From an uncultured Chloroflexia bacterium (GTDB lineage Bacteria; Chloroflexota; Limnocylindria; QHBO01), in NCBI GenBank assembly GCA_963699235.1, contig OY969424.1, positions 784,884 through 848,883 of the forward strand: a DNA stretch of 64,000 bases, read 5' to 3'. How positions within the stretch are numbered: position 1 is the stretch's first letter; every line of letters begins with the position of its first letter. Below the pieces are notes generated by a model. That model was not told the DNA's origin and ran no database searches. It saw only the letters and a list, made by a program, of their open reading frames with translations. The position numbers and the translations under genes were made by a program. Of this stretch, positions 4,167 to 18,941 are shown piece after piece.

Positions 4167-4214
4167 TTGAGTCACAGCGACCCCATGCCCGCCCGTACCA
4201 GATGAGTGCGCCGG
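4167..4214 (+). promoter_or_regulatory. class-A conserved upstream motif of sigma 1
   Basis: TTGAGT (4167) followed 18 nt later by GCCCGT, then the box GTACCAGATGAGTGCGCCGG (4195..4214). Homologous to the boxes at 9106..9125 and 12919..12938. Ends 29 nt before ATG 4244. Confidence 0.45.
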
Positions 4215-4243
4215 ATCCACCGGTGCTCCACAGCGGAAGACGC

Positions 4244-4798
4244 ATGGACATCGATCTGGTGAAACGGGCGCAGGACGGAGACGAAGAGGCATTCGCGAGC
4301 CTTGCCGTGTCCGCCGGCGACCGCCTCCATGCCGTGGCGCACAGGATCCTGCGCGACACGCACCTCGCCGAGGACGCCACGCAGCAGGCGCTGCTGACCA
4401 TCTGGCGAGACCTTCCGCAGCTGCGCGACCCGGCACGCTTTGATGCCTGGTCGTATCGGCTCCTCGTGCGCGCCTGCTACGCCGAGGGACGCCGATCCGG
4501 ACGCTGGTCGCCTGGCCTGCGCCTGGTGCTGCACGAACGAGATGAACCGATGTCGGTGGACGGCACGGGCTCGGTCGCTGACCGCGACCAGCTCGAGCGC
4601 GGCTTCCGACGGCTTTCCATCGATCACCGTGCGGTGGTGGTCCTGCACCACTACCTCGACATGCCGCTCGACCAGATCGCCGACACGCTCGGCGTTCCGA
4701 TCGGGACGGTCCGATCTCGACTTCATTACGCGATGCGCGGGCTGCGGGCGGCACTCGATGCCGATGCGCGACCCACGCCGCGGGAGGCTGCGAAGTGA
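4244..4798 (+). CDS. ECF-type RNA polymerase sigma-70 factor, paralog 1 (subfamily A)
   Basis: ORF 4202..4798. I chose ATG 4244 (MDIDLVKRAQ) because paralogs 2 and 4 start MDTDL/MDTET at the homologous position. Region 2 (EDATQQALLTIWRDLPQLRDPARFDAWSYRLLVRACY) and region 4 HTH (VVVLHHYLDMPLDQIADTLGVPIGTVRSRLHYA) are present. Confidence 0.9.
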   Translation: MDIDLVKRAQDGDEEAFASLAVSAGDRLHAVAHRILRDTHLAEDATQQALLTIWRDLPQLRDPARFDAWSYRLLVRACYAEGRRSGRWSPGLRLVLHERDEPMSVDGTGSVADRDQLERGFRRLSIDHRAVVVLHHYLDMPLDQIADTLGVPIGTVRSRLHYAMRGLRAALDADARPTPREAAK

Positions 4799-5682
4799 GC
4801 ACCGAACGCGACGTCAACCGCATCGTCCGGTCGTGGATGGAGGAGGGCGTGACGGCGCTCCCGGATCACATCCTGGATGCCGTGCTCGACCAGCTCCCCG
4901 CGACCCCACAGCGCCGCGCCACCTGGTGGCGGGTGCAGAGGTACATCGAAATGAACAAGCCACTTGCCATTGGGCTCGTGACCGCGGCGGCCATCCTGGT
5001 CGTGGCCCTCATCGGCCTGAATCTCGGTCCGGGTTCCGGGCCACCGCCAGGGGGAGAGCCCAGCACGACGCCGGCTCCCTCGTCGACACCGGCGCCGACA
5101 CCGGCGGCAATGGTCCAGGGACCCATGGATCCGGGAACCTACGTCTCGCCAGCAAGTGTGGGGGGCGCGGCGTTCGACTTCACGGTGCCCGCCGGTTGGA
5201 CGACTGATTCGGACCTCTTCGTCCAGAAGAACACGGACGCCGACCAGCTCGTCGAGATCACGACCGGGGTGATGTTCTCCGCATGGCAGGTGGATCACGT
5301 TTTCGCCGACGCCTGCGAGGGCGATGGAACGGAAGAACCCATCGACGACGCCGTCGCATCGCTGGCCACCGCACTCGCCAACCAGGCAGGACGGGAGTCG
5401 TCCGCTCCGGCGGAGATCGAAGTCGATGGGTATACCGGCCAGCTCGTCGAACTGACCGCCCCGGCCGACCTCACCAGTTGTGGAGGAAGGCTCCGAACAT
5501 GGCCGGCCTTGAACGGTGATCTGAACAGCGGCTGGCCCGCCGGCCCGGGCCAGATCGACGACGTCTACATCGTTGACGCGGACGGCACCCGGCTCGTGGT
5601 CGTCGCAACCCATTGGGCAGGCACGAGCGCCGCGGACCTGGCCGAGCTCGAGGAGATCGTTGTCTCCATCCAGATCCGGTAG
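4795..5682 (+). CDS. sigma-coupled single-pass membrane protein (putative anti-sigma factor), partner 1
   Basis: ORF 4795..5682. Its GTG start overlaps the sigma stop (GTGA). N-domain RDVNRIVRSWMEEG..TPQRRATWW, one TM helix (PLAIGLVTAAAILVVALIGL), a Pro/Ser/Thr linker and an ectodomain of about 190 aa. Confidence 0.8.
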   Translation: MSTERDVNRIVRSWMEEGVTALPDHILDAVLDQLPATPQRRATWWRVQRYIEMNKPLAIGLVTAAAILVVALIGLNLGPGSGPPPGGEPSTTPAPSSTPAPTPAAMVQGPMDPGTYVSPASVGGAAFDFTVPAGWTTDSDLFVQKNTDADQLVEITTGVMFSAWQVDHVFADACEGDGTEEPIDDAVASLATALANQAGRESSAPAEIEVDGYTGQLVELTAPADLTSCGGRLRTWPALNGDLNSGWPAGPGQIDDVYIVDADGTRLVVVATHWAGTSAADLAELEEIVVSIQIR

Positions 5683-5772: not shown

Positions 5773-6174
5773 ATGACGGATACCCGAGCGGCGGCCCAGA
5801 ACTGGGCCCGGACCTGGCAGGCGGCGTGGGAGGCCCGGGACGTGGAGCGGGTGCTCACCCTCTACGCCCCGGAGATCGAGTACTGGACCGAGCCTTTCCG
5901 TGAGCCGTACCGCGGGCTTGCCGGCGCGCGCGAGTACGTGAGCCAGTCGTTTGCCTCCGAGCACACCGTCACGGCCTGGTTTGGGGAGCCGGTGGTTGAT
6001 GGCGACCGCGCTGCCATCCCCTGGTGGGCGACCCAGATCGAGGACGACAAGCCGGTGACCCTGGCCGGCATCTCCCTCCTCCGCTTCAACGCGGACGGCT
6101 TGGTGGTCGAGGAGTGGGACACCTGGAATGCCTCCGAGCCGATGCACGACCGCCCGCCGACCTGGGGTGGCTGA
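5773..6174 (+). CDS. SnoaL-like / NTF2-fold protein
   Basis: ORF 5773..6174, 133 aa. Pattern of small NTF2-like proteins (W..AW.ARD...VL.LYAP...). Confidence 0.7.
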   Translation: MTDTRAAAQNWARTWQAAWEARDVERVLTLYAPEIEYWTEPFREPYRGLAGAREYVSQSFASEHTVTAWFGEPVVDGDRAAIPWWATQIEDDKPVTLAGISLLRFNADGLVVEEWDTWNASEPMHDRPPTWGG

Positions 6175-6541
6175 CCAACCCGCCCCTGACGGCCTGAGCC
6201 CCGCCGCGGTCGCGTACCGGGCGGCGCATGCGGCGTTCGCGCTGGCCCAGCTGACGAGCCTGGCCTACGTGTGGGGCTGTGTCTTGAGCGGACGCCGTGA
6301 CCGCCCCCTGGGCGCGGCGGTCGGCTTCCTCGGCCTCGAGGGTATAGCCCTCGTCATCGGCCGCGGGAACTGCCCGCTCGGTCCGTTCCAGGCACGGCTC
6401 GGTGACCCGGTCCCGCTCTTCGAGCTCGTCCTTCCGCCGAGGGCGGCCAAGGCCGCGGTTCCGGTCCTTGCCGCGGTCGCCGTCGCCGGCATTGCCGCGG
6501 TCGCGATCCTGCCCGCGGCGGATCGGGCCAACCGTCCATGA
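6167..6541 (+). CDS. small membrane protein (DUF2784-like, GNCPLG motif)
   Basis: Frame of ORF 6128..6541. GTG at 6167 overlaps the stop of the SnoaL gene. Hydrophobic helices and a CPL motif. The start is uncertain. Confidence 0.5.
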   Translation: MADQPAPDGLSPAAVAYRAAHAAFALAQLTSLAYVWGCVLSGRRDRPLGAAVGFLGLEGIALVIGRGNCPLGPFQARLGDPVPLFELVLPPRAAKAAVPVLAAVAVAGIAAVAILPAADRANRP

Positions 6542-7323
6542 CCGCCCGGCCGGCAGCGCCGGTGCCGCAGGGGGTCATCGGCCGGGTCGCCGCTGCCTAT
6601 CGGGTCAACTCATCGGCGATTGCCGTCGCCCTGCTGATCATCACCAACCTGATCCCGCTGGTGGGCGTCCTGTGGCTGGGCTGGAGCCTGCTGCTCATTT
6701 TGGCCCTGTACTGGGCCGAGAACGGCGTGGTGGGCGTGATCAACGTCCTGAAGATCATGACCGCTCGGGGCGAAAACTCGACCGCGACCGTTCGCTGGCG
6801 AATGAACGGGAAGCCGATCGACCAGGTTTCGCGGCTCGGGATGGCCGGATTCTTCGCCCTTCATTACGGCATCTTCTGGGTCGTCCACGGCGTGTTCGTG
6901 TTCACCTTCATCCCGGTCATGACCGGGATGACCATGTCGGGCGGCTTTGGCCCCGGCTTCGTGTTCATCACCGGTCCCGTTGGCCCGCCCGGTCTGCCGG
7001 GAGTGGACGCATCGGTCTTCGCGTTCGGGGTGGTGGGGCTGGCCATCAGCCACGCGGTGTCGTTCTGGATGAACTACCTGGGGCGGGGCGAGTACCGGAT
7101 CCTCTCGCCGGCGGTGGTGATGATGCAGCCGTACGGGCGGCTGGTGATCATGCACCTGACCATCCTGGTCGGCGCATTCGTCAGCATCTCGATCGGCACG
7201 CCTTTCGGATCGCTCCTGGTGCTGGTCGTCCTGAAGACGGCGCTCGACCTCGCGTTCCACCTTCGCCAGCACCGCGACGTGCCGGCCGCCTCACCTGGGA
7301 GCGTGCTCGCGAACTCTGCCTAA
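6538..7323 (+). CDS. polytopic membrane protein (DUF6498-like)
   Basis: ORF 6538..7323, 261 aa. ATGA overlap with the upstream gene. At least six hydrophobic helices. The family name is from memory. Confidence 0.7.
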   Translation: MTARPAAPVPQGVIGRVAAAYRVNSSAIAVALLIITNLIPLVGVLWLGWSLLLILALYWAENGVVGVINVLKIMTARGENSTATVRWRMNGKPIDQVSRLGMAGFFALHYGIFWVVHGVFVFTFIPVMTGMTMSGGFGPGFVFITGPVGPPGLPGVDASVFAFGVVGLAISHAVSFWMNYLGRGEYRILSPAVVMMQPYGRLVIMHLTILVGAFVSISIGTPFGSLLVLVVLKTALDLAFHLRQHRDVPAASPGSVLANSA

Positions 7324-8222: not shown

Positions 8223-8960
8223 CTAGCTCGCCGAAGGCTCGGGGGACGTATCCGGATTGGTGGAGGGACCGTGGAACCAACCACGTCGCGAACCCCAGTC
8301 CCCGATGTTCCCGTCGTTCAGCGTGGCCTCCACCCGCTCGATGATGGCATCGGCCTTCTCCTGTGTGATGGTGCCGGCCTCGACAGCGGCATCTACATCG
8401 GCCTGGGCCGATGCCAGGGCGGCGGCGACGACATCGGCGTAGGGGACACCCTCAGCCGTGGCGACCTCCTCGAGCGTGCTGTCGGTCAGCGCCTCGCGGA
8501 GCTCGGCCGTCGTCATGTCCAGCGAGGTCGCGGCGGCCTCCCACATCCCTGTCAGGAAGTCCACCCGGGCGGCGTGTTGGCCCCAGTGGCCCAGCTTGAA
8601 GCCGATCCATCGGCAACCGTCGCCGTCCCACTCGTTGACGCGCTCGATCATTCGGTCGGCCGCGGCCTGGGTCAGGTCACCGGCCTCGACCGCAGCGTTG
8701 ATGGCGGCGATGGCCGCGGCCTTCGCCGCGGGCGCCAGCTCATCGGTCGAGACGCCCAGCTCCGAGGCGAAGGTGTCGAGGAAGGTCTGGCAGTACGCGC
8801 TGGCGTCCCCGGTCGTCTCCTCGTCCCCGAAGACGGCGGATGGCTCGCTGGACCCACTCCCGCCCGGAGCGGCCAGGACCGAACCGATCAGTGTTCCGCC
8901 CACCAGGGCGGCGGTGATGAGGACGGCTGCAGCGCCGAGGATCTTCAGTGGCTGCGACAT
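8223..8960 (-). CDS. secreted protein with two G-x-(L/I)-T-Q-x-x-A-D-x-(M/I)-I-E-R-V helical repeats (DUF2680-like)
   Basis: In-frame ATG 8960..8958 (MSQPLKILGAAAVLITAALVGG, signal/TM) inside ORF 8223..9293. Repeats AVEAGDLTQAAADRMIERV and AVEAGTITQEKADAIIERV. Divergent from sigma 2. Confidence 0.65.
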   Translation of the reverse strand: MSQPLKILGAAAVLITAALVGGTLIGSVLAAPGGSGSSEPSAVFGDEETTGDASAYCQTFLDTFASELGVSTDELAPAAKAAAIAAINAAVEAGDLTQAAADRMIERVNEWDGDGCRWIGFKLGHWGQHAARVDFLTGMWEAAATSLDMTTAELREALTDSTLEEVATAEGVPYADVVAAALASAQADVDAAVEAGTITQEKADAIIERVEATLNDGNIGDWGSRRGWFHGPSTNPDTSPEPSAS

Positions 8961-9156: not shown

Positions 9157-9705
9157 ATGGATACCGATCTCGTGATACGGGCGCAACGCGGAGACCGAGA
9201 GGCATTCGCGGATCTCGCTGCCACGATCGCAGATCGGTTCCTGGCGACGTCGCACAGGATCCTGAGCGACATCGACCTTGCCGAGGACGCCACCCAGCAG
9301 GCGCTGGTCAGCGTCTGGCAGGACCTTCCGCAGCTCCGCGACCCGGCCCGCTTCGAGGCCTGGTCGTATCGGCTTCTCGTGCGCGCCTGCTACGCCGAGG
9401 GCCGGAAATCCCGCCGCTGGGCGCCAAACCTGAGGCTGCTGACGGTTGACGAACCGATGGCTGCCGACGGTATGAGCGCGGTTGTCGATCGCGACCAGCT
9501 CGAACGCGCCTTTCGGCGACTCTCTCTGAACCATCGAACGGTGGTGGTGCTGCACCACTACCTGGACCTGCCGCTCGATCAGGTCGCCGAGCTTGTCGGT
9601 GCCCCGGTCGGGACGGTGGGATCAAGACTGCATTACGCGATGCGGGCCATGCGCGCGGCGATCGACGCCGACGCTGGCACGACGCCCCGGGAGGCCGCGC
9701 AATGA
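9157..9705 (+). CDS. ECF-type sigma-70 factor, paralog 2 (subfamily A)
   Basis: ORF 9157..9705, 182 aa. Regions 2 and 4 are as in paralog 1. By manual alignment it is roughly four-fifths identical to paralog 4. Confidence 0.9.
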   Translation: MDTDLVIRAQRGDREAFADLAATIADRFLATSHRILSDIDLAEDATQQALVSVWQDLPQLRDPARFEAWSYRLLVRACYAEGRKSRRWAPNLRLLTVDEPMAADGMSAVVDRDQLERAFRRLSLNHRTVVVLHHYLDLPLDQVAELVGAPVGTVGSRLHYAMRAMRAAIDADAGTTPREAAQ

Positions 9706-10644
9706 GTGACGAGCGAGACCTTTCCGGCGACGTCAACCGCGTCGTCCGGTCGTGGCTGCGCGAGGACCGACACGAGGATGCCGACCGCGTCCTGGTGACG
9801 GCCCTGAACACGGTGGACACGACCCCACAGCGCCGATCCACTCGGTGGTCGGCGTGGAGGGATCTTCTTCATGGACAACAACGTCGTCCGCGTCGGCCTG
9901 GTGGCCGCCGCGGTCGCGATCATCGCGGTGATCGCCTTCAATCTTCTGCCGGGATCGCAGGCTCCGGGCGGTGAGCCGAGCGCGACGCCGGAACCGTCCG
10001 TCACCGAACCCTCGGAGTCGGCGGCGGCTGGCCTCCCCGTGGGCAGCTCATATACGCTCTCGGAGGACGAACTACCGATCGCTGTGACGATCCCGGCCCC
10101 CGGCTGGTCCGCAGAGGACTCCAGCTTCCTCGTCAAGGACGGGAACTGCTGCGCGCCGGATGGAGCCAGCATTCTCGGGGCGTGGGCGGGCGATCCGATC
10201 GTCCCGAGCGACCCGTGCCACTGGGCGACCACCATGCCCGACACCCCGGCCACCACGCTCGAGGAGATCGGCGCCGCGCTTGCCAGCCAGGCGACGCGAG
10301 ATGCCTCGGAGCCGGTGGACGTCACCCTGGACGGGCATCCCGGCATCTCGATCACGCTCCATGTGCCGGCTGACATTGCCTACGACGGCGGTGAGTTCAC
10401 CGGCTGTGACGTGGGCGACCCGGGGCCGGGTCAAAATGTCGGCCCCAAGTTCTGCACCTTTGCCCTCGAGGACCCGGCGCTGTGCCACATGTGGTACCAC
10501 GGGCCGGACGAGTTCAGCGAGCTGTGGATCGTGGACGTGGACGGACAGTTCGTGATCGTGACCGGAAACTACCTGCCGGAGACCCCGGCCGAAGATGTCG
10601 ATGAAGTCCAGGCCATCCTCGGCTCCATGACGTTCAGCCAGTAG
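9702..10644 (+). pseudogene. sigma-coupled membrane partner 2, reading frame broken near 9861 (may be an assembly indel)
   Basis: The N-domain lies in ORF 9702..9974 (DVNRVVRSWLRED..TPQRRSTRWSAWR). The TM helix and ectodomain lie in ORF 9871..10644 (..IFFMDNNVVRVGLVAAAVAII..). One extra base at about 9861 separates the two frames. ATGA overlap with the sigma 2 stop. Confidence 0.7.
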
Positions 10645-10651
10645 ACCGATG

Positions 10652-10679
10652 CGTGGGCGGCCCCACCGGGCCGCCCACG
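10652..10679. terminator. bidirectional hairpin between convergent genes
   Basis: CGTGGGCGGCCC (10652..10663) pairs with GGGCCGCCCACG (10668..10679), with a 4-nt loop. It lies between stops at 10644 (+) and 10686 (-). Confidence 0.6.
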
Positions 10680-10685
10680 TCATGT

Positions 10686-11204
10686 CTACCAGGTCTCGCT
10701 GTGGACGACGTCGGCCAGGGACTTGCGGCCGCCGCGCTTGTTCGGGGCGGTGAGCTTCGACGGGTCCGCCGGGTAGCCGAACGAGAGGAGCCAGTCGCAG
10801 CGTTGGCCGACGGGGAGTCCCAGGAGCTCACCGGCCACCCGATGGTTGTGCGCGGTGGCCGGGGCACTCCCGATGCCCAGCTCCCAGGCGGCGAGCACCA
10901 TGCTCTGGGCGGCGCGCCCCAGGTCCCAGAGGATGGAGCGGCCGTGCGGTGTGTCCTGGTCCGGCGCGACGAGCGCCACCGCCACCGCGGCCCCCGCCAG
11001 GTGATCGGCATACCGCCCCACGGCGGTCAGCTGCCGAAGGCGCTCGCGATCGGTCACCACGACGAACGTCCAGACCTGCTCGTTCTTGCTGCTGCCGGTA
11101 CGCCGCCCCGCGTTGAGGATGCGCTCCAGGTGCTCGGGTTCCAGCGGCCGATCGGTGAACTCTCGAATCACTCGCACGGTGTTGATCGCCTTCCACGTTT
11201 CCAT
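10686..11204 (-). CDS. nitroreductase family protein
   Basis: In-frame ATG 11204..11202 (METWKAINTVRVIREFTDRPLEPEHLERILNAGRRTGSSKN) inside ORF 10686..11822. This is the classic nitroreductase N-terminal motif. Confidence 0.8.
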   Translation of the reverse strand: METWKAINTVRVIREFTDRPLEPEHLERILNAGRRTGSSKNEQVWTFVVVTDRERLRQLTAVGRYADHLAGAAVAVALVAPDQDTPHGRSILWDLGRAAQSMVLAAWELGIGSAPATAHNHRVAGELLGLPVGQRCDWLLSFGYPADPSKLTAPNKRGGRKSLADVVHSETW

Positions 11205-11258
11205 CGAGCCTAGTCTAGGCCGAACACCAGACGACCCGAAGGGAACCGCCCTGCGACG

Positions 11259-11308
11259 CAGATTGAACAGTTGGGGTGCTCCCAGGGCTCTCCCTTGTGA
11301 TCGAGTCC
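11259..11308 (+). promoter_or_regulatory. class-B conserved upstream motif of sigma 3
   Basis: CAGATTGAAC (11259..11268), then 30 nt, then GATCGAGTCC (11299..11308). The same two-box arrangement occurs before sigma 5 and sigma 6. Confidence 0.5.
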
Positions 11309-11342
11309 AGATCGGACCGACGTTCGAAGACCCGGAGGTCAG

Positions 11343-11897
11343 GTGCAGGAAGCACTGGTCGACCGAGCGAAGCAGGGTGATGAAGAAGCCTTCGAAGCCC
11401 TCGCTCGCCTGGTCGGGGACCGATGCCTGGCGATCGCGATTCGGATCCTGCGCGACGCCGACCTGGCGGAGGACGCATTCCAGGCCGCGTTCATCACGGC
11501 CTGGCGCGAGCTCCGCACCCTGCGTGACAACCGGCTCTTCGAGCCCTGGCTCCACCGGATCCTGACCCATGCCTGCTACGCCGAGGCCAGGCGTCGCACG
11601 CGATGGTCGGAAGGCATCCATCTCGTACCCGTCGAGCCCTCGTATGGCTCGAACGACTACCTGACCGTGGACGATCGCGACCAGCTCGAACGAGGCCTCC
11701 GGAGGCTCACCGTCGAGCAGCGCGCCGTCCTCGTCTTCCACCACTACCTCGGCCTCTCCATCGCGGAAGTGGCCGAACGGATCGGAATCCCCGTCGGGAC
11801 CGCGAAGTCCCGCCTCCACCACGCCACCAGTGCGCTGAGAGCCAGCCTCGAGGCTGACGCTCGGACGCCATCCACATCCCAGGAGCGATTGGCATGA
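11343..11897 (+). CDS. ECF-type sigma-70 factor, paralog 3 (subfamily B)
   Basis: ORF 11343..11897 with a GTG start preceded by GGAGG. Region 2 (TAWRELRTLRDNRLFEPWLHRILTHACY) and region 4 (VLVFHHYLGLSIAEVAERIGIPVGTAKSRLHHA) are present. Confidence 0.9.
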   Translation: MQEALVDRAKQGDEEAFEALARLVGDRCLAIAIRILRDADLAEDAFQAAFITAWRELRTLRDNRLFEPWLHRILTHACYAEARRRTRWSEGIHLVPVEPSYGSNDYLTVDDRDQLERGLRRLTVEQRAVLVFHHYLGLSIAEVAERIGIPVGTAKSRLHHATSALRASLEADARTPSTSQERLA

Positions 11898-12811
11898 AGA
11901 CGCCGCGAAACCCCGATCGACTCATTCGGACCTACCTCCAGGAGGACCAGGCCAACGAGTACCACGAGGTTCCCGAGCATCTCTTCAACGCCATCCGCGA
12001 CGGGATCGAACAGACACGTCAGCGGGCCGTCATCGGCTCCATGGGAGTACCCGTCATGAACAAGTTCCTGGCCGTGGGCCTCGGCGTCGCCGCCGTCGTG
12101 CTCGCGGGCTACATCGGCGTCCAGCTTCTCGGTGGCCCGGCGCCCGGCGGCCCGGCGCCGGTCGAGACACCACAACCGGTCGATTCCGCCGCGCCCGAAC
12201 CGTCGAGCCCGGCCGGCGCCGGCCTGCCGGACGGTCCCTTCTCCCTCTGGGCAGGACCACCTTCGATCACGGTCACCATCGCGGCCCCTGGCTGGGACGG
12301 CGAAGTGGACGGTGGCATGTTGGTCAAGGACGAGGATGCCGACTCGCCGGACTTCGCAGGGATGATCGTGTACACGGGCGATCTGTTCGTGTACGGCGAT
12401 CCCTGCCAGTGGGAGGGGACCGAGCCGGATTCTCCTGCCACCACCCCCGAGGAGCTCGTGGCCGCACTGTCGGCCCAGGCGCTGCGTGATGCCTCGGAGC
12501 CGATAGACATCACGCTCGACGGGCACGCCGGAAAGGCGATCACCCTCCATGTGCCGGACGACGCCGTGGTCAGCGGAGAAGATTTCCCCGATTGCGACCA
12601 GGACACCTTCGGCGTGTGGACGGACAGCATCGACGGCGCCCCCGGCCAGGCACCGTATCGGTACAACCAGGGCTCGGGCCAGATCGACGAGATCTGGGCG
12701 GTGGACGTGGACGGCGCCTTGACGGTCATCGACTGGACGTACTACCCCGCCACCCCGGCCGAAGACGTCGCGGAGGAACAGGCCATCGTCGAGTCGGCAA
12801 CCTTCGAGTAG
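11894..12811 (+). CDS. sigma-coupled single-pass membrane protein (putative anti-sigma factor), partner 3
   Basis: ORF 11894..12811. ATGA overlap with the sigma stop. N-domain DRLIRTYLQED..IEQTRQRAVIG, TM helix MNKFLAVGLGVAAVVLAGYIGV, and an ectodomain with the DPCQW and FPDCD motifs. Confidence 0.8.
   Translation: MKTPRNPDRLIRTYLQEDQANEYHEVPEHLFNAIRDGIEQTRQRAVIGSMGVPVMNKFLAVGLGVAAVVLAGYIGVQLLGGPAPGGPAPVETPQPVDSAAPEPSSPAGAGLPDGPFSLWAGPPSITVTIAAPGWDGEVDGGMLVKDEDADSPDFAGMIVYTGDLFVYGDPCQWEGTEPDSPATTPEELVAALSAQALRDASEPIDITLDGHAGKAITLHVPDDAVVSGEDFPDCDQDTFGVWTDSIDGAPGQAPYRYNQGSGQIDEIWAVDVDGALTVIDWTYYPATPAEDVAEEQAIVESATFE
12005..12187 (+). repeat. 183-nt near-identical tract shared with 16542..16724
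   Basis: Covers IEQTRQRAVIGSMGVP.MNKFLAVGLGVAAVVLAGYIGVQLLGGPAPGGPAPVETP. I counted about 15 mismatches over 183 nt by eye, far fewer than in the flanking parts of partners 3 and 5. Confidence 0.7.
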
Positions 12812-12847
12812 ACACGGCGCTCGAACGAGCGCGGCCACAGACCGATG

Positions 12848-12875
12848 CGCGGGCGGCCCAACCGGGCTGCCCGCG
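12848..12875 (+). terminator. hairpin downstream of partner 3
   Basis: CGCGGGCGGCCC (12848..12859) pairs with GGGCTGCCCGCG (12864..12875) with one G-U pair, followed by a T-rich stretch. Confidence 0.5.
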
Positions 12876-12891
12876 TGCTTCTACTCGCATT

Positions 12892-12938
12892 TTGAAAAAA
12901 CGGGCGCTCGGCATGCTCATACCGGATGTAGCGTCGGG
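12892..12938 (+). promoter_or_regulatory. class-A conserved upstream motif of sigma 4
   Basis: TTGAAA (12892) followed 17 nt later by GCTCAT, then the box ATACCGGATGTAGCGTCGGG (12919..12938). Ends 33 nt before ATG 12972. Confidence 0.5.
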
Positions 12939-12971
12939 ACCCAACCTGACGCCGATACCCCGGGGAGGGGC

Positions 12972-13520
12972 ATGGACACCGAGACCGTGAGACGTGCACA
13001 GGGTGGAGACCAGGAGGCGTTTGCCGACCTGGTCGATGCCATCGCGGGTCGGTTCCTGGCCGTGTCGCATCGAATCCTGGGCGACATCGACCTTGCCGAG
13101 GACGCCACGCAGCAAGCGCTGCTCAACGTCTGGCAGAACCTTCCTCAGCTCCGCGACCCGGCCCGCTTCGAGGCCTGGTCGTATCGGGCTCTCGTCCGTG
13201 CTAGCTACGCCGAGGGTCGGAAATCCCGCCGTTGGGCGCCGAACATGCGGCTGCTGTCGGTTGACGAACCGATGGTGGTCGATGGTCTGGGCTCGGTCGT
13301 CGATCGCGACCAGCTCGAACGCGCCTTCCGGCGACTCTCCCTGAACCATCGCACGGTGGTGGTCCTGCACCACTACCTGGACCTGCCGCTCGACCGGGTG
13401 GCCGAAATTGTCGGCGCGCCAGTCGGGACGGTGGGCTCGAGACTGCATTACGCAACGCGGACCCTGCGCTCGGCGCTTGTTGCCGACGCGCAGCCGACTT
13501 CCCGGGAGGCAGCGCAATGA
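12972..13520 (+). CDS. ECF-type sigma-70 factor, paralog 4 (subfamily A)
   Basis: ORF 12972..13520, 182 aa. Colinear with paralog 2. Confidence 0.9.
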   Translation: MDTETVRRAQGGDQEAFADLVDAIAGRFLAVSHRILGDIDLAEDATQQALLNVWQNLPQLRDPARFEAWSYRALVRASYAEGRKSRRWAPNMRLLSVDEPMVVDGLGSVVDRDQLERAFRRLSLNHRTVVVLHHYLDLPLDRVAEIVGAPVGTVGSRLHYATRTLRSALVADAQPTSREAAQ

Positions 13521-14329
13521 CCCAGTTCCATCCCTCCGATCGGGACGTCAACCGCGCCATCCGGTCGTGGCTCCACGAGGACCGGCAGGAGGACGTCTCC
13601 CGCATCGCGGGAGCCGTGCTGGACGAGCTGGGCGCGACCCCACAGCGTCGGACCACCACCTGGTGGCCGGCGCGGAGGACGCCTGAAATGAACAAGTTCC
13701 TTGCCATCGGTCTCGGCGCGGCAGCCGTGGTCGTGGCTCTCCTCATCGGTTCGAACCTCATGGGTCCGTCGAGCCAAGCGCCCGGCGGCGCACCACCGGC
13801 ATCGGTGGAACCATCGGTGGAGCCCTCCGAGGCAGCCCCGTCGTCGGCCCCATCCGCCCCGCCGCTGACCCAAAGCTTCACCTCGACGCGGCACGGGATT
13901 TCACTGTCGTACCCCGAGGGATGGACCGCTCAAGTGGCGACCGAGCCCTGGACGGAAAGCACGTTCCCCCTGTTCTTTGGTGGGCCTCATGCCGATTGGC
14001 TGTCCGACCCCGTCCTTGAGGCTGATCTGTTCCTGGCCATCGCCTCGCAGCCGATCGGCGATTCCACGCCCGAGGACTGGGCCGCCGAGCAGCTGGCCAG
14101 CGACGAGGGCTGTGGCACGACAACCGAGCCGATCGCCTTCGACGGCGGCACCGGACTGACCGGGCCCGGAAACTGCACGGTTGCAGTCATCACCGCCGAT
14201 GGCCGCGGCTACTGGATCCAGCTCTACACGGGTGGCGACGACCCAGATGCCGTGGCTCCCTACGACAGGGCGTGGTTCGAGGAGTTCCTGGCCACGGTGC
14301 AAGTGCATCCCGAGGACGCCGTGGACTGA
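13517..14329 (+). CDS. sigma-coupled single-pass membrane protein (putative anti-sigma factor), partner 4
   Basis: ORF 13517..14329 with ATGA overlap. N-domain RDVNRAIRSWLHEDR..TPQRRTTTWW, TM helix MNKFLAIGLGAAAVVVALLIG, and an ectodomain unrelated to those of partners 2, 3 and 5. Confidence 0.75.
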   Translation: MTQFHPSDRDVNRAIRSWLHEDRQEDVSRIAGAVLDELGATPQRRTTTWWPARRTPEMNKFLAIGLGAAAVVVALLIGSNLMGPSSQAPGGAPPASVEPSVEPSEAAPSSAPSAPPLTQSFTSTRHGISLSYPEGWTAQVATEPWTESTFPLFFGGPHADWLSDPVLEADLFLAIASQPIGDSTPEDWAAEQLASDEGCGTTTEPIAFDGGTGLTGPGNCTVAVITADGRGYWIQLYTGGDDPDAVAPYDRAWFEEFLATVQVHPEDAVD

Positions 14330-14343
14330 GGGCCGGAGCCCGA

Positions 14344-14378
14344 ACGTGGGCGGCCTGCACGGGGCCGCCCACGTTTTC
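14344..14378 (+). terminator. intrinsic terminator downstream of partner 4
   Basis: ACGTGGGCGGCC (14344..14355) pairs with GGCCGCCCACGT (14363..14374), followed by TTTT. Confidence 0.65.
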
Positions 14379-14386
14379 CTCGCCAG

Positions 14387-14399
14387 CCAGATTGAACCG
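14387..14399 (+). promoter_or_regulatory. CCAGATTGAACCG box upstream of the amidohydrolase gene (identical 13-mer at 15803..15815)
   Basis: This is the 5' box of the class-B motif, 69 nt before ATG 14468. It lacks the downstream GATCG box seen before the sigma genes. Confidence 0.45.
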
Positions 14400-14467
14400 C
14401 CTGGCGCCGTTCCCGCCCCTCTCAGGCGGAGCCTCGTGAGTTCGCGAGCGTTGGGAGTGAACTGGGC

Positions 14468-15811
14468 ATGACCAAACGAGCCCTGATCCTGGTCGCCGTC
14501 CTTTGGTTGGTGGCCTGCGCCCCGACTGAAACGGCTTCGCCCTCCCCGCCGGCAGACTCAGCCCCGGAGTCCGGGCGCATGATCCTCGTCGGCCAGATCG
14601 TGACCATGGACCACCCCGCCATCGCCGAGGCCCTCCTCATCGAGGACGGCCGCGTGGCCGCGGTCGGGACCCGGGACGAGGTGCTGGCACTCGCCGACGA
14701 CCAGACCCCGGTCATCGACATCGGTCCCAACGTCGCCTACCCCGGCTTCATCGACGCCCACGCGCACTGGATCGGTGACCGCCAGATCTACGACATCGAT
14801 TCGCCGGCGGCGGCGATGGACGCGGCCATCACCCGCGGCTGGACCTCGATCTCCGAGCAGTGGGTCAACGACGAACGGCTCGACGAGCTGGAGGCCCTGG
14901 CCGCGGACCACGCCCTCCCGCTCCGGGTGGACGCCTACCTGGCCCTGAACGCGCTGGAGCCCGGCGGCTACTACGGCGACTGGTATGCCGATCGCGAGCC
15001 AGGGCCGGTGGACGACTTCCTCCGTGTCCGGGGGCTGAAGATCCACCTCGATAGCGGCAGCGGCGCCATCCTGTACTGGGACGCCGCCACCCTGGACCAG
15101 ACCATCGAGGACGCCAACGCGGCGGGTTGGCAGCTCTCGGTCCACGCTGTCAGCACCGAGGCGCAGGAGATGGTCCTCGACGCGTTCGAGGCCGCGATCG
15201 GCCCGACCGGTCCCAACCCGCTCCATCACCGGATCGAGCATGCCCTTCAGGTGACCGATGCCCAGCTGGCCCGCATGGTCGCCATGGACCTGGCCACGGT
15301 CATCCAGCTCGACGGCGCCGCCTACGACTGGGTGGACTGGACGGCGACCCTCCCCGGAGAAGACGGTCGCGACTACCTGGGCGAGAACCCCGAATGGGTC
15401 GCCCGCTGGCGCGACCTGGTGGACGCCGGGCTCCACGTGGCCGGGTCATCCGACATGCCCTGGTTCCTCCCCGAGGTCCCGATGACCGATGACATCGGCC
15501 GACCGGTGGACGAGATCGCGGGCGGGATGGACGGCCGAGGTCGCGAGGTCCCGGAGACCCCGGAGTGGATGCTCGACCAGCTGCTGACCGCCGAGCAGGG
15601 CCTGCGGTCGGTGACCCTCGATGCGGCCTGGGCCCTGGGCGACGAGGCGAACCGCGGCCGCCTGGCGGTCGGGACCTATGGCGACGTCATCATCCTCAGC
15701 CGCGACGTGACGACCGGCACGCCGGACGAGATTCGCTCGACGGAGGTCATCGCCACCATCGTCGGCGGCAGGACCGCCTTCTGCGCGGACCCGGCCTACT
15801 GCCCAGATTGA
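14468..15811 (+). CDS. amidohydrolase-family metallo-hydrolase, lipoprotein
   Basis: ORF 14468..15811, 447 aa. Lipobox (LWLVAC), an HxH metal motif (FIDAHAHW) and the amidohydrolase_3-like layout. Confidence 0.85.
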   Translation: MTKRALILVAVLWLVACAPTETASPSPPADSAPESGRMILVGQIVTMDHPAIAEALLIEDGRVAAVGTRDEVLALADDQTPVIDIGPNVAYPGFIDAHAHWIGDRQIYDIDSPAAAMDAAITRGWTSISEQWVNDERLDELEALAADHALPLRVDAYLALNALEPGGYYGDWYADREPGPVDDFLRVRGLKIHLDSGSGAILYWDAATLDQTIEDANAAGWQLSVHAVSTEAQEMVLDAFEAAIGPTGPNPLHHRIEHALQVTDAQLARMVAMDLATVIQLDGAAYDWVDWTATLPGEDGRDYLGENPEWVARWRDLVDAGLHVAGSSDMPWFLPEVPMTDDIGRPVDEIAGGMDGRGREVPETPEWMLDQLLTAEQGLRSVTLDAAWALGDEANRGRLAVGTYGDVIILSRDVTTGTPDEIRSTEVIATIVGGRTAFCADPAYCPD

Positions 15812-15853
15812 ACCGATAGGCTGCCTCGGGCGCTCTTCAGTCCGATCGCGCCC
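15803..15853 (+). promoter_or_regulatory. class-B conserved upstream motif of sigma 5
   Basis: CCAGATTGAAC (15803..15813, overlapping the amidohydrolase stop codon), then 30 nt, then GATCGCGCCC (15844..15853). Confidence 0.5.
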
Positions 15854-15890
15854 AGACCGGGCGTGACACGGCCCCGACACGGAGGGATGG

Positions 15891-16446
15891 GTGCAGGCAG
15901 AGCTGGTCAACCAGGCGAAGCGAGGCGATCGAGAGGCCTTCGACGCTTTGGCTCGCCTGACCGGCGACCGATGCATGGCGATCGCGTTCAGGATCCTGCG
16001 CGATTTCGACCTTGCCGACGACGCCGTCCAGGCCGCGCTGCTGACCGCCTGGCGCGAGATTCGCGCCCTGCGGGATCCCGACCTCTTCGAGCCGTGGCTC
16101 CACCGGATCCTGACCCACGCCTGCTTCGCCGAGGCCAGGCGGCGCCGGCGATGGTCAGAGGGGATCCGGCTCCTCCCGGTCGAGCCCGTGCACGGGTCCG
16201 ACCCGTACCGCAATGTTGATGATCGCGACCAGCTCGAACGCGCCTTTCAGAAGGCTCACCGTCGAGCAGCGCGCTGTTCTCGTCTTCCACCACTACCTCG
16301 GGCTGCCGTTGCCCGAGGTAGCTCAACGAATCGGAATCCCACTCGGGACGGTGAAGTCCCGGATGCACCACGCCAAGCAGGCGCTCCGCGCGGCCCTCGA
16401 GGCCGATGCCCGGGCGTCCTCGACACCCCAGGAGCGAATCGTATGA
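15891..16446 (+). pseudogene. ECF-type sigma-70 factor, paralog 5 (subfamily B), frame broken at about 16248..16252 (may be an assembly indel)
   Basis: Region 2 lies in the frame of ORF 15891..17324. Region 4 (RRLTVEQRAVLVFHHYLGLPLPEVAQRIGIPLGTVKSRMHHA) lies in ORF 16213..16446. The sequence gcctttcagaaggctcacc has one base more than the paralog sequence gccttccgccgcctcacc. Confidence 0.75.
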
Positions 16447-17324
16447 CCGAGCGACACGACCTCGACCAGCAGCTGTCGGCCTTCCTGCGAGAAGGTCCGA
16501 CCGACCTGCCCGATCCGTCGTTCGACACGGTCCGCGATCGCATTGAACAGACACGACAGCGAGCCGTCATCGGCTCGATGGGAGTACCCGACATGAACAA
16601 GTTCCTGGCCGTGGGCCTCGGCGTCGCCGCCGTCGTGCTCGCGGGCTACATTGGAGTCCAGCTCCTCGGCGGGCCTGCGCCCGGCGGCCCGGCGCCGGTC
16701 GAGACACCATCGCCGGTCGAGTCCGTCGCGACCGAGCCGTCGGCCGCTGCCGCGGCGGACCTTCCCGAGGGTCCGTACCTGTTCTCAGACGAGGTCCCGA
16801 TCACGGTGACGATCGCGGCCCCCGGCTGGTCCGTGAATGACGACGGAGCCCTCGTCAAGGACGAAAACATCGAGTCTCCAGATGGGCTATTCGTGTTCGG
16901 GCCGTGGGTCGGCGAGTTCTCCGTCCCGGCGGACCCGTGCGAGTGGTCGTCGGCGATGTCCGATACCCCGGCCAACACGGTCGATGAGATCGTGGCTGCT
17001 TTGACCAGCCAGGCCTCGCGCGATGCCTCGGAGCCGATGGACGTCACGGTGGACGGGCATGCCGGGCAGACGATCACGCTCCACGTGCCCGAGGACGTCG
17101 GATACAACGCCGGCGAATTCGACTGCGACCAGGGCAACTTCTGCACCGTGGTGTCCGAAGCGGGTTGCGAGATTCACAACCCTGCCCCCGGCGCCATCAG
17201 TGACCTGTGGATCGGTGACTTCGATGGTGAGGTCCTGATCATGGCTGGCTACTACTACCCGGAGACCTCGGCCGATCACGTCGATGAGATGCGCGGCATC
17301 CTCGAGTCGATGACCTTCGAGTAG
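16443..17324 (+). CDS. sigma-coupled single-pass membrane protein (putative anti-sigma factor), partner 5
   Basis: ATG 16443 (MTERHDLDQQLSAFLREG) overlaps the stop of the sigma 5 C-terminal frame (ATGA). The TM helix is identical to that of partner 3. The ectodomain has the DPCEW and EFDCD motifs. Confidence 0.8.
   Translation: MTERHDLDQQLSAFLREGPTDLPDPSFDTVRDRIEQTRQRAVIGSMGVPDMNKFLAVGLGVAAVVLAGYIGVQLLGGPAPGGPAPVETPSPVESVATEPSAAAAADLPEGPYLFSDEVPITVTIAAPGWSVNDDGALVKDENIESPDGLFVFGPWVGEFSVPADPCEWSSAMSDTPANTVDEIVAALTSQASRDASEPMDVTVDGHAGQTITLHVPEDVGYNAGEFDCDQGNFCTVVSEAGCEIHNPAPGAISDLWIGDFDGEVLIMAGYYYPETSADHVDEMRGILESMTFE
16542..16724 (+). repeat. 183-nt near-identical tract shared with 12005..12187
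   Basis: See 12005..12187. Confidence 0.7.
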
Positions 17325-17523: not shown

Positions 17524-18096
17524 ATGCAGGCTGGCAACCAGGACCGAACGCGGGCAGCGCTCGTCGAGCGTGCCCAGGAGGGGGATCGTGATGCGTTCGA
17601 CGCCCTGGCTCGCACGGCAGGAGACCGATGCATGGCCATTGCCACCCGGATCCTCCGGGATACCGATGTCGCCCAGGACGCCGTCCAGGCCACCCTGATC
17701 ACCGCGTGGCGGGACCTCCCGTCACTCCGCGACCCGAATCGGTTCGAGCCGTGGCTCCATCGGATCCTGGTCAACGCCTGCTACGCCGAGGCCAAACGCC
17801 GTCGGCGGTGGACGTCATCCATCCGGATGCTCCCCGTGGACGTGGCCTCGAACGCGAATGACATCCTCACCGTCAACGACCGTGACCAGCTGGAACGGGC
17901 CTTCCGCCGCCTCACCGTTGAGCAGCGGGCGGTGATGGTCCTCCACCACTACATCGGTCTTCCGGTCCCGGAAGTCGCCGATCGACTGGGCATCCCGCTC
18001 GGGACCGCCAAGTCGCGGATCCACCACGCCACCACCGCGCTCCGGGCCAGCGTTGAAGCCGATGCCCGGACGCCCTCACAGGAGCGATCGGCATGA
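17524..18096 (+). CDS. ECF-type sigma-70 factor, paralog 6 (subfamily B)
   Basis: ORF 17524..18096, 190 aa. Region 2 (TAWRDLPSLRDPNRFEPWLHRILVNACY) and region 4 (VMVLHHYIGLPVPEVADRLGIPLGTAKSRIHHA) are present. Confidence 0.9.
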   Translation: MQAGNQDRTRAALVERAQEGDRDAFDALARTAGDRCMAIATRILRDTDVAQDAVQATLITAWRDLPSLRDPNRFEPWLHRILVNACYAEAKRRRRWTSSIRMLPVDVASNANDILTVNDRDQLERAFRRLTVEQRAVMVLHHYIGLPVPEVADRLGIPLGTAKSRIHHATTALRASVEADARTPSQERSA

Positions 18097-18941
18097 CCAC
18101 GCCACGCGATTCCACTCCCGGCGGGTCCGCTCCACGCGACGCCGACCGACTCATCTCTGCCTTCCTGGCCGAGGGCCAGGCCGATCTTCCCGACCAGGTG
18201 TACGACGAGGTGCGGGCCGAGATCGATCACACCAGCCAACGCACCGGTATCGGTCCCTGGAGGACGTCATTCATGAATCGTTTCGCATCCGTCGTCGCCG
18301 TGGCGGTGGTGATGGTGATCGCCGTCATCGTCGGCCTGCAGCTGGCCGGCGGCGGTCCGCTCATCGGCGGTGACCCGTCCGTCTCCCCGTCGCCGTCCGC
18401 CGAACCGTCGGCATCGGACAAGCCGACGCCCAAGCCGACCGGCCCGGCCGAGCCCTCGGCCAAGCCATCCGCGGAGCCGTCCGGTCCCGAGCCGGCCTTC
18501 ACCTGCGGCCAGCCCATCCACCTCGACGCGGTGGGGAGCGACTTCCATCCGCTGATCGTGGCGGACATCCGGCTCGGCACCCATGACGGCTACGACCGGA
18601 TCGTGTTCGAGTACGTGGACGAGGGCTCGCCCTACCTCGACATCGAGGCCGACGAGCCGCCGTTCGTCAAGGATCCCAGCGGCCTGCCGTTGGAGGTGGC
18701 CGGCGACCCGCATTTCCGCCTCATCTTCGGCGGGGCCGCGAAGTACGACAGCGAGACCGGCGAGCAGCCGTACAGCGGGCCCGTGGACTTCGAACCCGGC
18801 TATCCGCAGATCGCACAGTTCGTCGAGGCCGGCGACTTCGAGGCGAGCCATAGCTGGTACCTCGGGACGAACGGCAGTGACTGCCTCCGCGCCTTCTACC
18901 TGACCGAGCCTGGACGGATCGTGATCGACGTCCAGCACTGA
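18093..18941 (+). CDS. sigma-coupled single-pass membrane protein (putative anti-sigma factor), partner 6
   Basis: ORF 18093..18941 with ATGA overlap. N-domain DRLISAFLAEGQADLPDQVYDEVRAEIDHTSQRTGIG, one TM helix, a long Pro/Ser/Ala/Glu/Lys linker, and a distinct ectodomain (IRLGTHDGYDRIVFEY...). Confidence 0.75.
   Translation: MTTPRDSTPGGSAPRDADRLISAFLAEGQADLPDQVYDEVRAEIDHTSQRTGIGPWRTSFMNRFASVVAVAVVMVIAVIVGLQLAGGGPLIGGDPSVSPSPSAEPSASDKPTPKPTGPAEPSAKPSAEPSGPEPAFTCGQPIHLDAVGSDFHPLIVADIRLGTHDGYDRIVFEYVDEGSPYLDIEADEPPFVKDPSGLPLEVAGDPHFRLIFGGAAKYDSETGEQPYSGPVDFEPGYPQIAQFVEAGDFEASHSWYLGTNGSDCLRAFYLTEPGRIVIDVQH

Follow-up and report, generated by a model that had tools for sequence, protein, structure and literature searches.

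Repeated exchange of predicted PsbP-like ectodomains between the putative anti-sigma partners of two ECF sigma factor lineages in a soil Limnocylindria bacterium

Organization of the array

Six co-oriented pairs of genes, each encoding an extracytoplasmic function (ECF) sigma factor followed by a membrane protein, occupy 4.2-18.9 kb of a stretch of DNA from a soil Limnocylindria genome. The whole stretch of 64,000 nucleotides (hereafter the window) corresponds to C1:784884-848883 of a 2.09-Mb single-contig genome (69% GC), and all six pairs listed in the initial annotation were present where that annotation had placed them. At every intact pair, the gene for the membrane protein (the partner, P1 to P6) overlaps the stop codon of the sigma gene by 4 nt (ATGA or GTGA). 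The six partners can be aligned over their first ~110 residues, which comprise an N-terminal domain (N-domain), a Met-Asn, a transmembrane helix, and a Pro-, Ser-, Thr-, and Ala-rich linker of ~35-45 residues. Beyond the linker lie the ectodomains, the repeated exchange of which between two sigma lineages, denoted A and B, is the subject of this report. All features below are on the plus strand unless noted otherwise.

Sigma 1 (clade A, 4202-4798) aligns with the other five sigma factors and was recognized by the sigma hidden Markov model (HMM) with E 1e-99. Its partner P1 (4795-5682) has an A-type N-domain (4795-4950), a transmembrane helix, and a Pro/Ser/Thr linker, followed by a divergent two-Cys ectodomain (~5116-5676) that is putatively PsbP-like and has its Cys codons at 5314-5316 and 5479-5481. 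Sigma 2 (clade A, 9157-9705) is 81% identical to sigma 4. Its partner P2 was originally delimited at 9871-10644, a range that does encode the transmembrane helix, the linker, and an ectodomain (10018-10641) of the type we call DPCxW after one of its motifs; the A-type N-domain lies just upstream in another frame (9702-9860; N-domain HMM, E 1e-16). One extra G in a GGG run at 9859-9861, between the N-domain and the transmembrane helix, keeps P2 from being a single open reading frame as sequenced, and may reflect an error of sequencing or genuine damage to the gene. The conserved Cys codons of P2 are at 10216-10218 and 10405-10407, and four further Cys are present.

Sigma 3 (clade B, 11343-11897) is followed by P3 (11894-12811), with a B-type N-domain (11894-12055), a transmembrane helix and linker (12056-12205), and the DPCxW ectodomain that was modelled (12206-12808; Cys codons at 12404-12406 and 12593-12595). 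Sigma 4 (clade A, 12972-13520) is paired with P4 (13517-14329), which carries an A-type N-domain, a transmembrane helix, a linker, and an ectodomain at 13829-14326 with invariant Cys codons starting at 14111 and 14174. Sigma 5 (clade B, 15891-16446) is, as sequenced, frame-broken at ~16245, so that the sigma HMM found it as two pieces in different frames; its partner P5 (16443-17324) has a B-type N-domain, a transmembrane helix, a linker, and a DPCxW ectodomain (16749-17321) with conserved Cys codons at 16938-16940 and 17124-17126 and one extra Cys pair. Sigma 6 (clade B, 17524-18096) precedes P6 (18093-18941), in which a B-type N-domain, a transmembrane helix, and a long linker lead to an AMIN-like ectodomain (18555-18938).

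The Met-Asn that opens the transmembrane helix was invariant in the alignment of the six partners, though P2 reads MDNN there (Met-Asn/Asp codons at 4951-4956, 9871-9876, 12056-12061, 13688-13693, 16593-16598, and 18273-18278). Several homologs in the databases, as well as a lipoprotein encoded elsewhere in the same genome, begin precisely at this Met, which could be an internal start giving rise to forms that lack the N-domain, or could reflect a gene-calling artefact.

Sigma factors and cytoplasmic domains

Sigma 2 and sigma 3 scored 54.6 and 64.2 bits, respectively, against TIGR02937 (cutoff 42.9), which places them among the ECF (group 4) sigma factors; the best ECF subfamily match, TIGR02983 (SigE-fam_strep), fell under its cutoff. 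Sigma factors 1, 2, and 4 (group A) share 69-81% identity and sigma factors 3, 5, and 6 (group B) share 64-75%, while identity between the groups is 46-54%. In the tree of sigma factors from the window and related genomes, clade A (17 rows) had support of 96/98 and clade B (15 rows) of 98/96. The N-domains are split in the same way: those of P1, P2, and P4 read DVNRxxRSWL...TPQRR and those of P3, P5, and P6 read ...FLxEG..LPD...TRQRxxIG. The two subfamilies proposed in the initial annotation, with the N-domain of P2 in A and those of P3 and P5 in B, are thus real by both alignments. The two classes of sigma genes also have distinct upstream boxes. One such box, CAGATTGAAC, has four copies in the window (0.04 expected), three of them upstream of class-B sigma genes.

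An Arg-rich stretch precedes the transmembrane helix which, by the positive-inside rule, places the N-domain in the cytoplasm and the ectodomain outside. The N-domain is 50-60 residues long, free of Cys, and encoded by a gene that overlaps the stop codon of the sigma gene, as expected in size and position of a class II (CnrY-like) anti-sigma domain. It does not qualify for class I (ASDI/ZAS), in which the anti-sigma domain has ~100 residues and often an HxxxCxxC motif, being only ~50 residues long, with no Cys and no zf-HC2 or RskA-type match. No Pfam or NCBIfam entry matched the N-domain, and a search of its profile against PDB sequences yielded no solved anti-sigma factor, only spurious matches to designed repeat proteins. 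Despite its cytoplasmic site, it stays 40-50% conserved in each clade when hundreds of homologs are compared.

From 53 loci on genome contigs, 30 pairs of sigma factor and partner were extracted. In the 22 pairs that could be read, the type of N-domain followed the sigma clade without exception (11/11 for A and 11/11 for B). Because of this co-segregation, the cytoplasmic location, and the translational coupling, we infer that the N-domain, which is probably two-helical, is the sigma-binding (anti-sigma) part of the partner.

Sequence family and conserved cysteines of the DPCxW ectodomain

The ectodomains of P2, P3, and P5, which had been described as clearly homologous, share 49-56% amino acid identity over 185-188 aligned residues; when the P3 ectodomain was searched against its own genome with tblastn, P5 and P2 were recovered with E 9e-44 and 2e-41, respectively. 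All of the motifs originally listed for the three are present, with the correction that P5 reads EFDCD, so that one motif is F.CD rather than F..CD. P1 had been suspected of being a distant relative, and is one: its ectodomain aligned end to end (E 4e-11, 30-36% identity), with both conserved Cys in register.

All partners were scanned against Pfam and NCBIfam; for the DPCxW domain, no match was obtained at E ≤ 1 in 11 members, and an alignment of the family gave no matches (0) to PDB sequence profiles. The families of the PsbP/Mog1p clan (PsbP, PsbP_2, LpqN, DcrB/DUF1795, and Mog1) did not detect it by sequence profile. The initial annotation could not assign the domain to a named family. In sequence it falls outside the curated families, and the refuting outcome named in that annotation, a well-known family whose ligands are known, did not emerge; its fold, however, can be named (see below). 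The DPCxW ectodomain is a new family of ~190 residues and two Cys that lacks a curated entry.

Only twelve positions were conserved in at least 85% of representatives at 50% identity: W30, D65, C67, A87, L88, G106, G109, P117, C130, D167, G170, and S197. A possible metal site, built from the His and Asp residues of TLHVPDD, CDQG, and YRYHQGPGQIDE, was dropped because conservation at this level was limited to these twelve. Both C67 and C130 (residues 171 and 234 of P3) were invariant in 96/96 close homologs and were found in 159/159 and 158/159 domain instances, respectively, among the 50%-identity representatives. The number of Cys is even in each ectodomain of the array and zero in the N-domain and the transmembrane helix. 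Invariance of both residues together with the even count makes a structural C67-C130 disulfide plausible, and the simplest reading; a conserved pair of Cys on the outer side of the membrane is what a disulfide-stabilized exported domain would be expected to show. A subclade consisting of P2, P5, and the lipoprotein from the same genome has two additional Cys in a variable loop, spaced by 8-10 residues, where a second disulfide is likely. The extra Cys codons of P2 and P5 are at window positions 10147-10152, 10453-10485, and 17142-17168, and P2 also has a CC doublet.

Predicted folds of the ectodomains

Residues 105-305 of P3 were modelled with AlphaFold2 from an alignment of 96 homologs, giving a predicted local distance difference test score (pLDDT) of 92.8 and a predicted TM-score (pTM) of 0.90. 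When this model was compared with the PDB using Foldseek, the top 42 matches were all PsbP/Mog1p-like except for BT_1490 (3hlz). They included Apa (5zx9, E 3e-4), PsbP (2xb3, 2vu4, 1v2b), LpqN (6e5d), and DcrB (6e8a), and further SciW/EagT6 (DUF1795), Mog1p, Tsi3, and MTC28. Against the Jonesia protein 3lyd, the target-normalized TM-score was 0.61, with a root-mean-square deviation of 3.9 Å. Probabilities were 0.9-1.0, TM-scores 0.4-0.6, and sequence identities 8-16%. According to the model, the DPCxW ectodomain has a PsbP/Mog1p-like alpha/beta fold.

The ectodomain of P4, modelled from 83 homologs (pLDDT 91.6), also proved PsbP/Mog1p-like in a Foldseek search, with matches to CyanoP (2lnj, E 3e-6), PsbP, and DcrB. 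In the P4 family, 6 of the 83 members had sub-threshold matches to PsbP_2 (best E 0.023) and one to PsbP (E 0.06). Comparison of the DPCxW and P4 ectodomain profiles with hhalign gave a local probability of 2.7% and nothing globally; when the full-length profiles of DPCxW and P4 partners were compared, only the N-domain, transmembrane helix, and linker aligned. The absence of a profile match means that the two are linked by predicted fold and not by demonstrated homology in sequence; the earlier description of the P4 ectodomain as unrelated holds for its sequence and fails for its fold. The P6 ectodomain, likewise called unrelated, is indeed so: residues 155-282 matched the AMIN-like family PF24837 at 91.3 bits (cutoff 27, E 7e-26). 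Five of the six ectodomains in the array thus appear to have one fold that is represented by at least two, arguably three, sequence families.

Exchange of ectodomains between sigma lineages

The initial annotation had proposed that ectodomains and cytoplasmic modules were recombined, and suggested comparing their phylogenies. Full-length homologs (117) were cut into N-domain and ectodomain; the ectodomain tree comprised 123 proteins. In the N-domain tree, the A (26) and B (91) types were parted by a single branch with 100% support, so that the label changes only once. In the ectodomain tree, the same label required 20-23 changes, as compared to 23-29 when labels were shuffled, and the well-supported (starred) branches alone forced 7-8 changes between A and B. 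The two trees are incongruent. When only the window genome and contigs of 11 kb or more were considered, an approximately unbiased (AU) test rejected a single ectodomain clade for A (delta log-likelihood 58, p = 0.003). For the 30 genome pairs, the sigma label required 10-11 changes on the ectodomain tree, equal to the shuffled mean, and holding A together cost 188 log-likelihood units (p-AU 4.6e-6). Incongruence was thus the same in the long-contig and whole-genome subsets.

Individual exchanges can be seen by simple comparison of modules. Within the window, the DNA of the sigma genes of modules 2 and 4 is 83-93% identical, the similarity decays through the transmembrane helix and linker, and the two ectodomains are from separate families; identity between the P2 and P4 DNA is lost between ~9840 and 10005. 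In two pairs of homologs (P0026/P0093 and P0025/P0113), ectodomains that are ~90% identical stand behind N-domain, transmembrane, and linker segments that are only ~25-30% identical, and the switch point is the boundary between linker and ectodomain. Recent swaps are visible in relatives. A genome of the same genus (G046) has a module similar to that of sigma 2 (sigma 86%, N-domain 73%), with an ectodomain nearer to that of P3 (64%) than to that of P2 (51%). In a genome of the same family (G058), the ectodomain behind a module similar to that of sigma 1 (sigma 80%, N-domain 81%) is of the P4 type, with 81% identity to that of P4. The N-domain of P6, which bears the AMIN-like ectodomain, groups with the N-domains of P0009 and P0062, which bear DPCxW; that of P4 clusters with the N-domains of two further DPCxW bearers, P0075 and P0100.

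A different trace of recombination was found between P3 and P5, in which a tract of 183 nt coding for the transmembrane helix and linker (12005-12187 versus 16542-16724) is 91-98% identical by sliding DNA comparison, while its flanks are 50-80% identical; we read it as a gene-conversion patch. In a related genome (L064, 7633-8201), a sigma factor truncated at model position 126 runs directly into the last ~50 residues of a DPCxW domain, the remnant of a module left by a deletion. Co-oriented tandem arrays of sigma/partner modules are the rule among relatives, an arrangement in which exchange would most readily be put down to unequal crossing-over and gene conversion.

From the trees, the AU tests, the identities within the window, and the swaps observed in relatives, the case that ectodomains were exchanged repeatedly between sigma lineages A and B is strongly supported. 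None of this evidence hangs on frame-broken genes alone.

Distribution and other architectures

With a profile of the ectodomain, 3,679 clusters (50% identity) were recovered at E ≤ 1e-3, of which 2,205 reached E ≤ 1e-10. Architectures were broken down for the best 149 clusters, of which ~69 have the N-domain, ~22 resemble lipoproteins in having a lipobox but no N-domain, and ~21 have only a signal or transmembrane anchor; 22 have at least two tandem copies of the domain, and fusions to PD40 beta-propellers or an esterase occur in a few. The domain is therefore well represented outside sigma contexts, where the initial annotation had suggested looking for it. Nearly all homologs came from metagenome-assembled genomes (MAGs) labelled Candidatus Limnocylindria, Limnocylindrales, or Chloroflexota, with a few lipoprotein forms in MAGs labelled Actinomycetota. 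Among 301 sampled Chloroflexota genomes, the domain occurred in 12/16 from the family of the window genome, in 3/17 others of its class, and in 0/~268 of the rest.

The genome of the window itself contains two of these forms, a lipoprotein and a propeller fusion. The lipoprotein mentioned above (C1:166186-166947; L004, 1309-2070) has the lipobox LLVGC, no N-domain, and a DPCxW domain that is the closest relative of the P2 ectodomain (65% identity). Directly downstream lies an ECF sigma factor of a different type (C1:166984-167538; L004, 2107-2661), the reverse of the usual gene order. At C1:~638.9-640.9 kb (L006, 36-2078), a transmembrane protein with PD40 (TolB-like) propeller repeats and a C-terminal DPCxW domain is encoded in three frames as sequenced, followed by the gene for a P4-like lipoprotein (L006, 1969-2832). 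Four more modules whose partners have ectodomains were found at C1:920.9-926.7 kb and 1448.8-1450.3 kb; by inspection of the sequences, one has a divergent DPCxW domain and the others have tandem domains with a GYELxxPxxW strand, which is typical of the PsbP-like fold. Three of these sigma/partner modules make up C1:920900-926750, where the partners carry two tandem ectodomains and one sigma gene (924105-924621, minus strand) is split between two frames. Partners with tandem ectodomains, two to four in number, include P0035 (495 aa), P0245 (707 aa), and P0333 (604 aa); P0035 combines P1-type and DPCxW-type domains behind one B-type N-domain.

Between the modules of the window lie genes for a SnoaL-like protein (5773-6174), a DUF6498 membrane protein (6538-7323), a secreted protein with DUF2680 repeats (8223-8960, minus strand), and a nitroreductase (10686-11282, minus strand); these four offered no obvious pointer to a ligand. 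The fourth copy of CAGATTGAAC (14388-14397) is located 71 nt upstream of a lipobox-bearing amidohydrolase gene (14468-15811), which on the strength of that box may be a target of a class-B sigma factor.

Discussion

Pairs of ECF sigma and anti-sigma factors are the third major mode of bacterial signal transduction, and few of their inputs are known. We consider it quite likely that each pair in the array is a module with a single input, consisting of an ECF sigma factor, a translationally coupled membrane partner, and an extracytoplasmic sensor domain, PsbP-like in all but P6, and that these sensor domains have been exchanged repeatedly. By analogy with class II anti-sigma factors, the single-pass partner would hold its cognate sigma factor through the N-domain, while the PsbP-like ectodomain probably binds a ligand or protein derived from the envelope. 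Ligand binding or damage at the ectodomain would then destabilize the partner, probably by regulated proteolysis as in RsiV, and so free the sigma factor. Recombination within the segment coding for the transmembrane helix and linker, or at the boundary of linker and ectodomain, would move ectodomains between lineages A and B. The simplest route would be unequal crossing-over, or gene conversion, among modules arranged in co-oriented tandem; lipoprotein and plain signal-anchor forms may have acquired or given up these domains in the same way. As the A and B sigma factors have different upstream boxes, transfer of an ectodomain would re-wire an input to a different output.

Several observations weigh against this scheme. 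The N-domain matches no known anti-sigma factor, so the argument for sigma binding is drawn from gene order, coupling, and co-segregation. The TM-scores are moderate, allowing assignment to a fold class rather than to a family, and no ligand can be deduced from them. As sequenced, P2 and sigma 5 both have broken reading frames, and so do the sigma gene at C1:924 kb, the propeller fusion, and many copies of the domain in long-read MAGs; some modules may thus be pseudogenes or decaying paralogs, or may contain indel errors from assembly. The domain is split between frames in eight loci from long-read MAGs of the MFD series (L041, L043, L050, L051, L054, L056, L059, and L060), which points to an indel error mode of assembly that the window genome may share. 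Finally, many homologs come from short metagenome contigs (1-3 kb), for which chimeric assembly is conceivable.

The most searching challenge to an exchange between lineages is concerted evolution, in which the two-Cys ectodomain would have been inherited vertically in both lineages and homogenized within genomes by gene conversion, so that the ectodomain tree reflects the genome of residence and no re-wiring took place. The clustering of P2, P5, and the lipoprotein from the same genome (98/98) is what such a process would produce, as is the presence of a B protein and an A protein from one genome (L044_2162 and L044_344) in the same starred ectodomain clade, and the 183-nt patch shared by P3 and P5 shows that conversion does occur. 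Homogenization cannot, however, produce near-identical sigma/N-domain modules with different ectodomain families, as seen for sigma 2 versus sigma 4 and in G058_d, nor does it account for the N-domain clade of P6, which also holds the DPCxW bearers P0009 and P0062. The ectodomain of P3, moreover, clusters with those of A-type proteins encoded in other genomes (P0021, 99/98) and not with its own paralogs. We regard concerted evolution as an improbable explanation for the pattern as a whole; module swapping and conversion, both of them forms of recombination, probably coexist. That the mosaics are artefacts, whether chimeras assembled from paralogs or errors in trees caused by rate variation and long branches, is scarcely credible. 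Homologs on contigs of 1-3 kb, the very long branches of P1 and L011_1551, and the frame breaks in the assembly would all fit such a reading, but incongruence is still seen in an analysis confined to the 2.09-Mb single-contig genome and contigs of 11 kb or more, and again in the pairs of sigma factor and partner taken from genomes. It is also visible in the identity matrices of the window, where no tree is involved, and the DNA of the paralogs, 50-80% identical outside the 183-nt patch, is too divergent to have been collapsed by an assembler.

A separate matter is whether the partners are anti-sigma factors at all. They might instead be co-transcribed, anchored envelope proteins, such as PsbP-like carriers of lipids or proteins, with an N-terminal segment that serves as a topogenic or stabilizing tail and sigma factors that are controlled by other means. 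An N-domain that matches nothing in Pfam, NCBIfam, or the PDB would suit this possibility, as would the common occurrence of the same ectodomain in free lipoproteins and signal-anchored proteins; both LpqN and DcrB, which are PsbP-like, have roles in envelope biogenesis. A mere tail would not be expected to follow the sigma clade in 22 of 22 cases while the ectodomain does not, which is the behaviour expected of a binding interface; nor would it explain the 4-nt overlap at all intact pairs or the 40-50% conservation of the N-domain within a clade in spite of its cytoplasmic location. We therefore find this account very unlikely, and retain the reading of the partners as putative anti-sigma factors.

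Clostridium (Acetivibrio) thermocellum has multiple paralogous SigI/RsgI pairs with different carbohydrate-binding sensor modules. The present array resembles them in having several paralogous pairs per genome, single-pass putative anti-sigma factors, a conserved cytoplasmic part, a disordered linker, and an interchangeable sensor. It differs in that the sigma factors are ECF (group 4), the N-domain does not match RsgI_N, and the sensors are PsbP-like or AMIN-like rather than carbohydrate-binding modules or glycoside hydrolases; exchange between sigma lineages is, in addition, quantified here. RsgI is discussed in PMC9732909.

Class II anti-sigma domains are shorter than 50 residues and wrap two helices around the ECF sigma factor (PMC7406223). 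Like CnrY of Cupriavidus metallidurans, a member of that class, the partners described here have an N-domain (~45-55 aa) without a zinc motif, directly downstream of an ECF sigma factor, and one transmembrane helix. They differ from CnrY in having no detectable sequence similarity to it and in each bearing a sensor domain of its own of 160-200 residues; CnrY itself acts together with CnrX and is nearly devoid of an ectodomain. In Bacillus subtilis (RsiV/SigV), binding of lysozyme by the ectodomain of RsiV triggers regulated intramembrane proteolysis (PMC6066255). The ligand-triggered proteolysis of an ECF anti-sigma factor that we propose would be similar in kind, although the fold and family of the ectodomain differ.

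Among proteins of known structure, the mycobacterial and actinobacterial proteins LpqN (6e5d), Apa (5zx9), MTC28 (4pws, 4ol4), and Jonesia 3lyd are of the same fold class as the modelled DPCxW ectodomain (Foldseek E 3e-4 to 4e-2, probability 0.92-1.0). They are exported or lipid-anchored, and the lipoprotein forms of DPCxW resemble LpqN in architecture. Identity to these proteins is, however, only 10-16%, with no profile match; its invariant pair of Cys and its DPCxW motif set the new family apart, and none of the four is fused to an anti-sigma module. PsbP and CyanoP (2xb3, 2lnj, 2vu4) and DcrB (6e8a) are the best structural matches of the P4-type ectodomain and good ones for DPCxW. Unlike PsbP and CyanoP, the domains described here belong to a non-photosynthetic host, are tethered through the membrane to a putative sigma-binding module, and reach no curated threshold. 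The PsbP/Mog1p fold class includes LpqN and DcrB, which bind lipids and proteins. A survey of the literature on PsbP-like anti-sigma ectodomains, or on ECF systems in Limnocylindria, returned nothing specific.

More speculatively, the arrays could be cassettes for the diversification of signalling. The transmembrane and linker segment with its Met-Asn would serve as a recombination joint and perhaps as an internal start, so that PsbP-like sensors are re-assorted among ECF lineages and switched between tethered and free forms, while the Cys pair might act as a thiol-disulfide switch through which the redox state of the envelope controls the stability of the partner. We hold this fuller scheme to be improbable as a whole.

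Modular sensors on anti-sigma factors are already familiar from RsgI; the novelty here is in the sensor family, in a short, previously unrecognized putative sigma-binding domain, and in the clarity with which inputs and outputs have been re-assorted. The DPCxW family, a candidate for a new Pfam entry, is a large sensor family without a curated database entry, from an abundant but uncultured soil lineage. Its arrays are a natural example of inputs re-assorted against outputs while the putative sigma-binding module stays locked to its sigma factor. The PsbP-like fold would be a recurrent type of anti-sigma sensor, worth screening for ligands, and the natural junctions, at the transmembrane helix and at the boundary of linker and ectodomain, could serve as a guide to where chimeric anti-sigma sensors might be joined when they are engineered.

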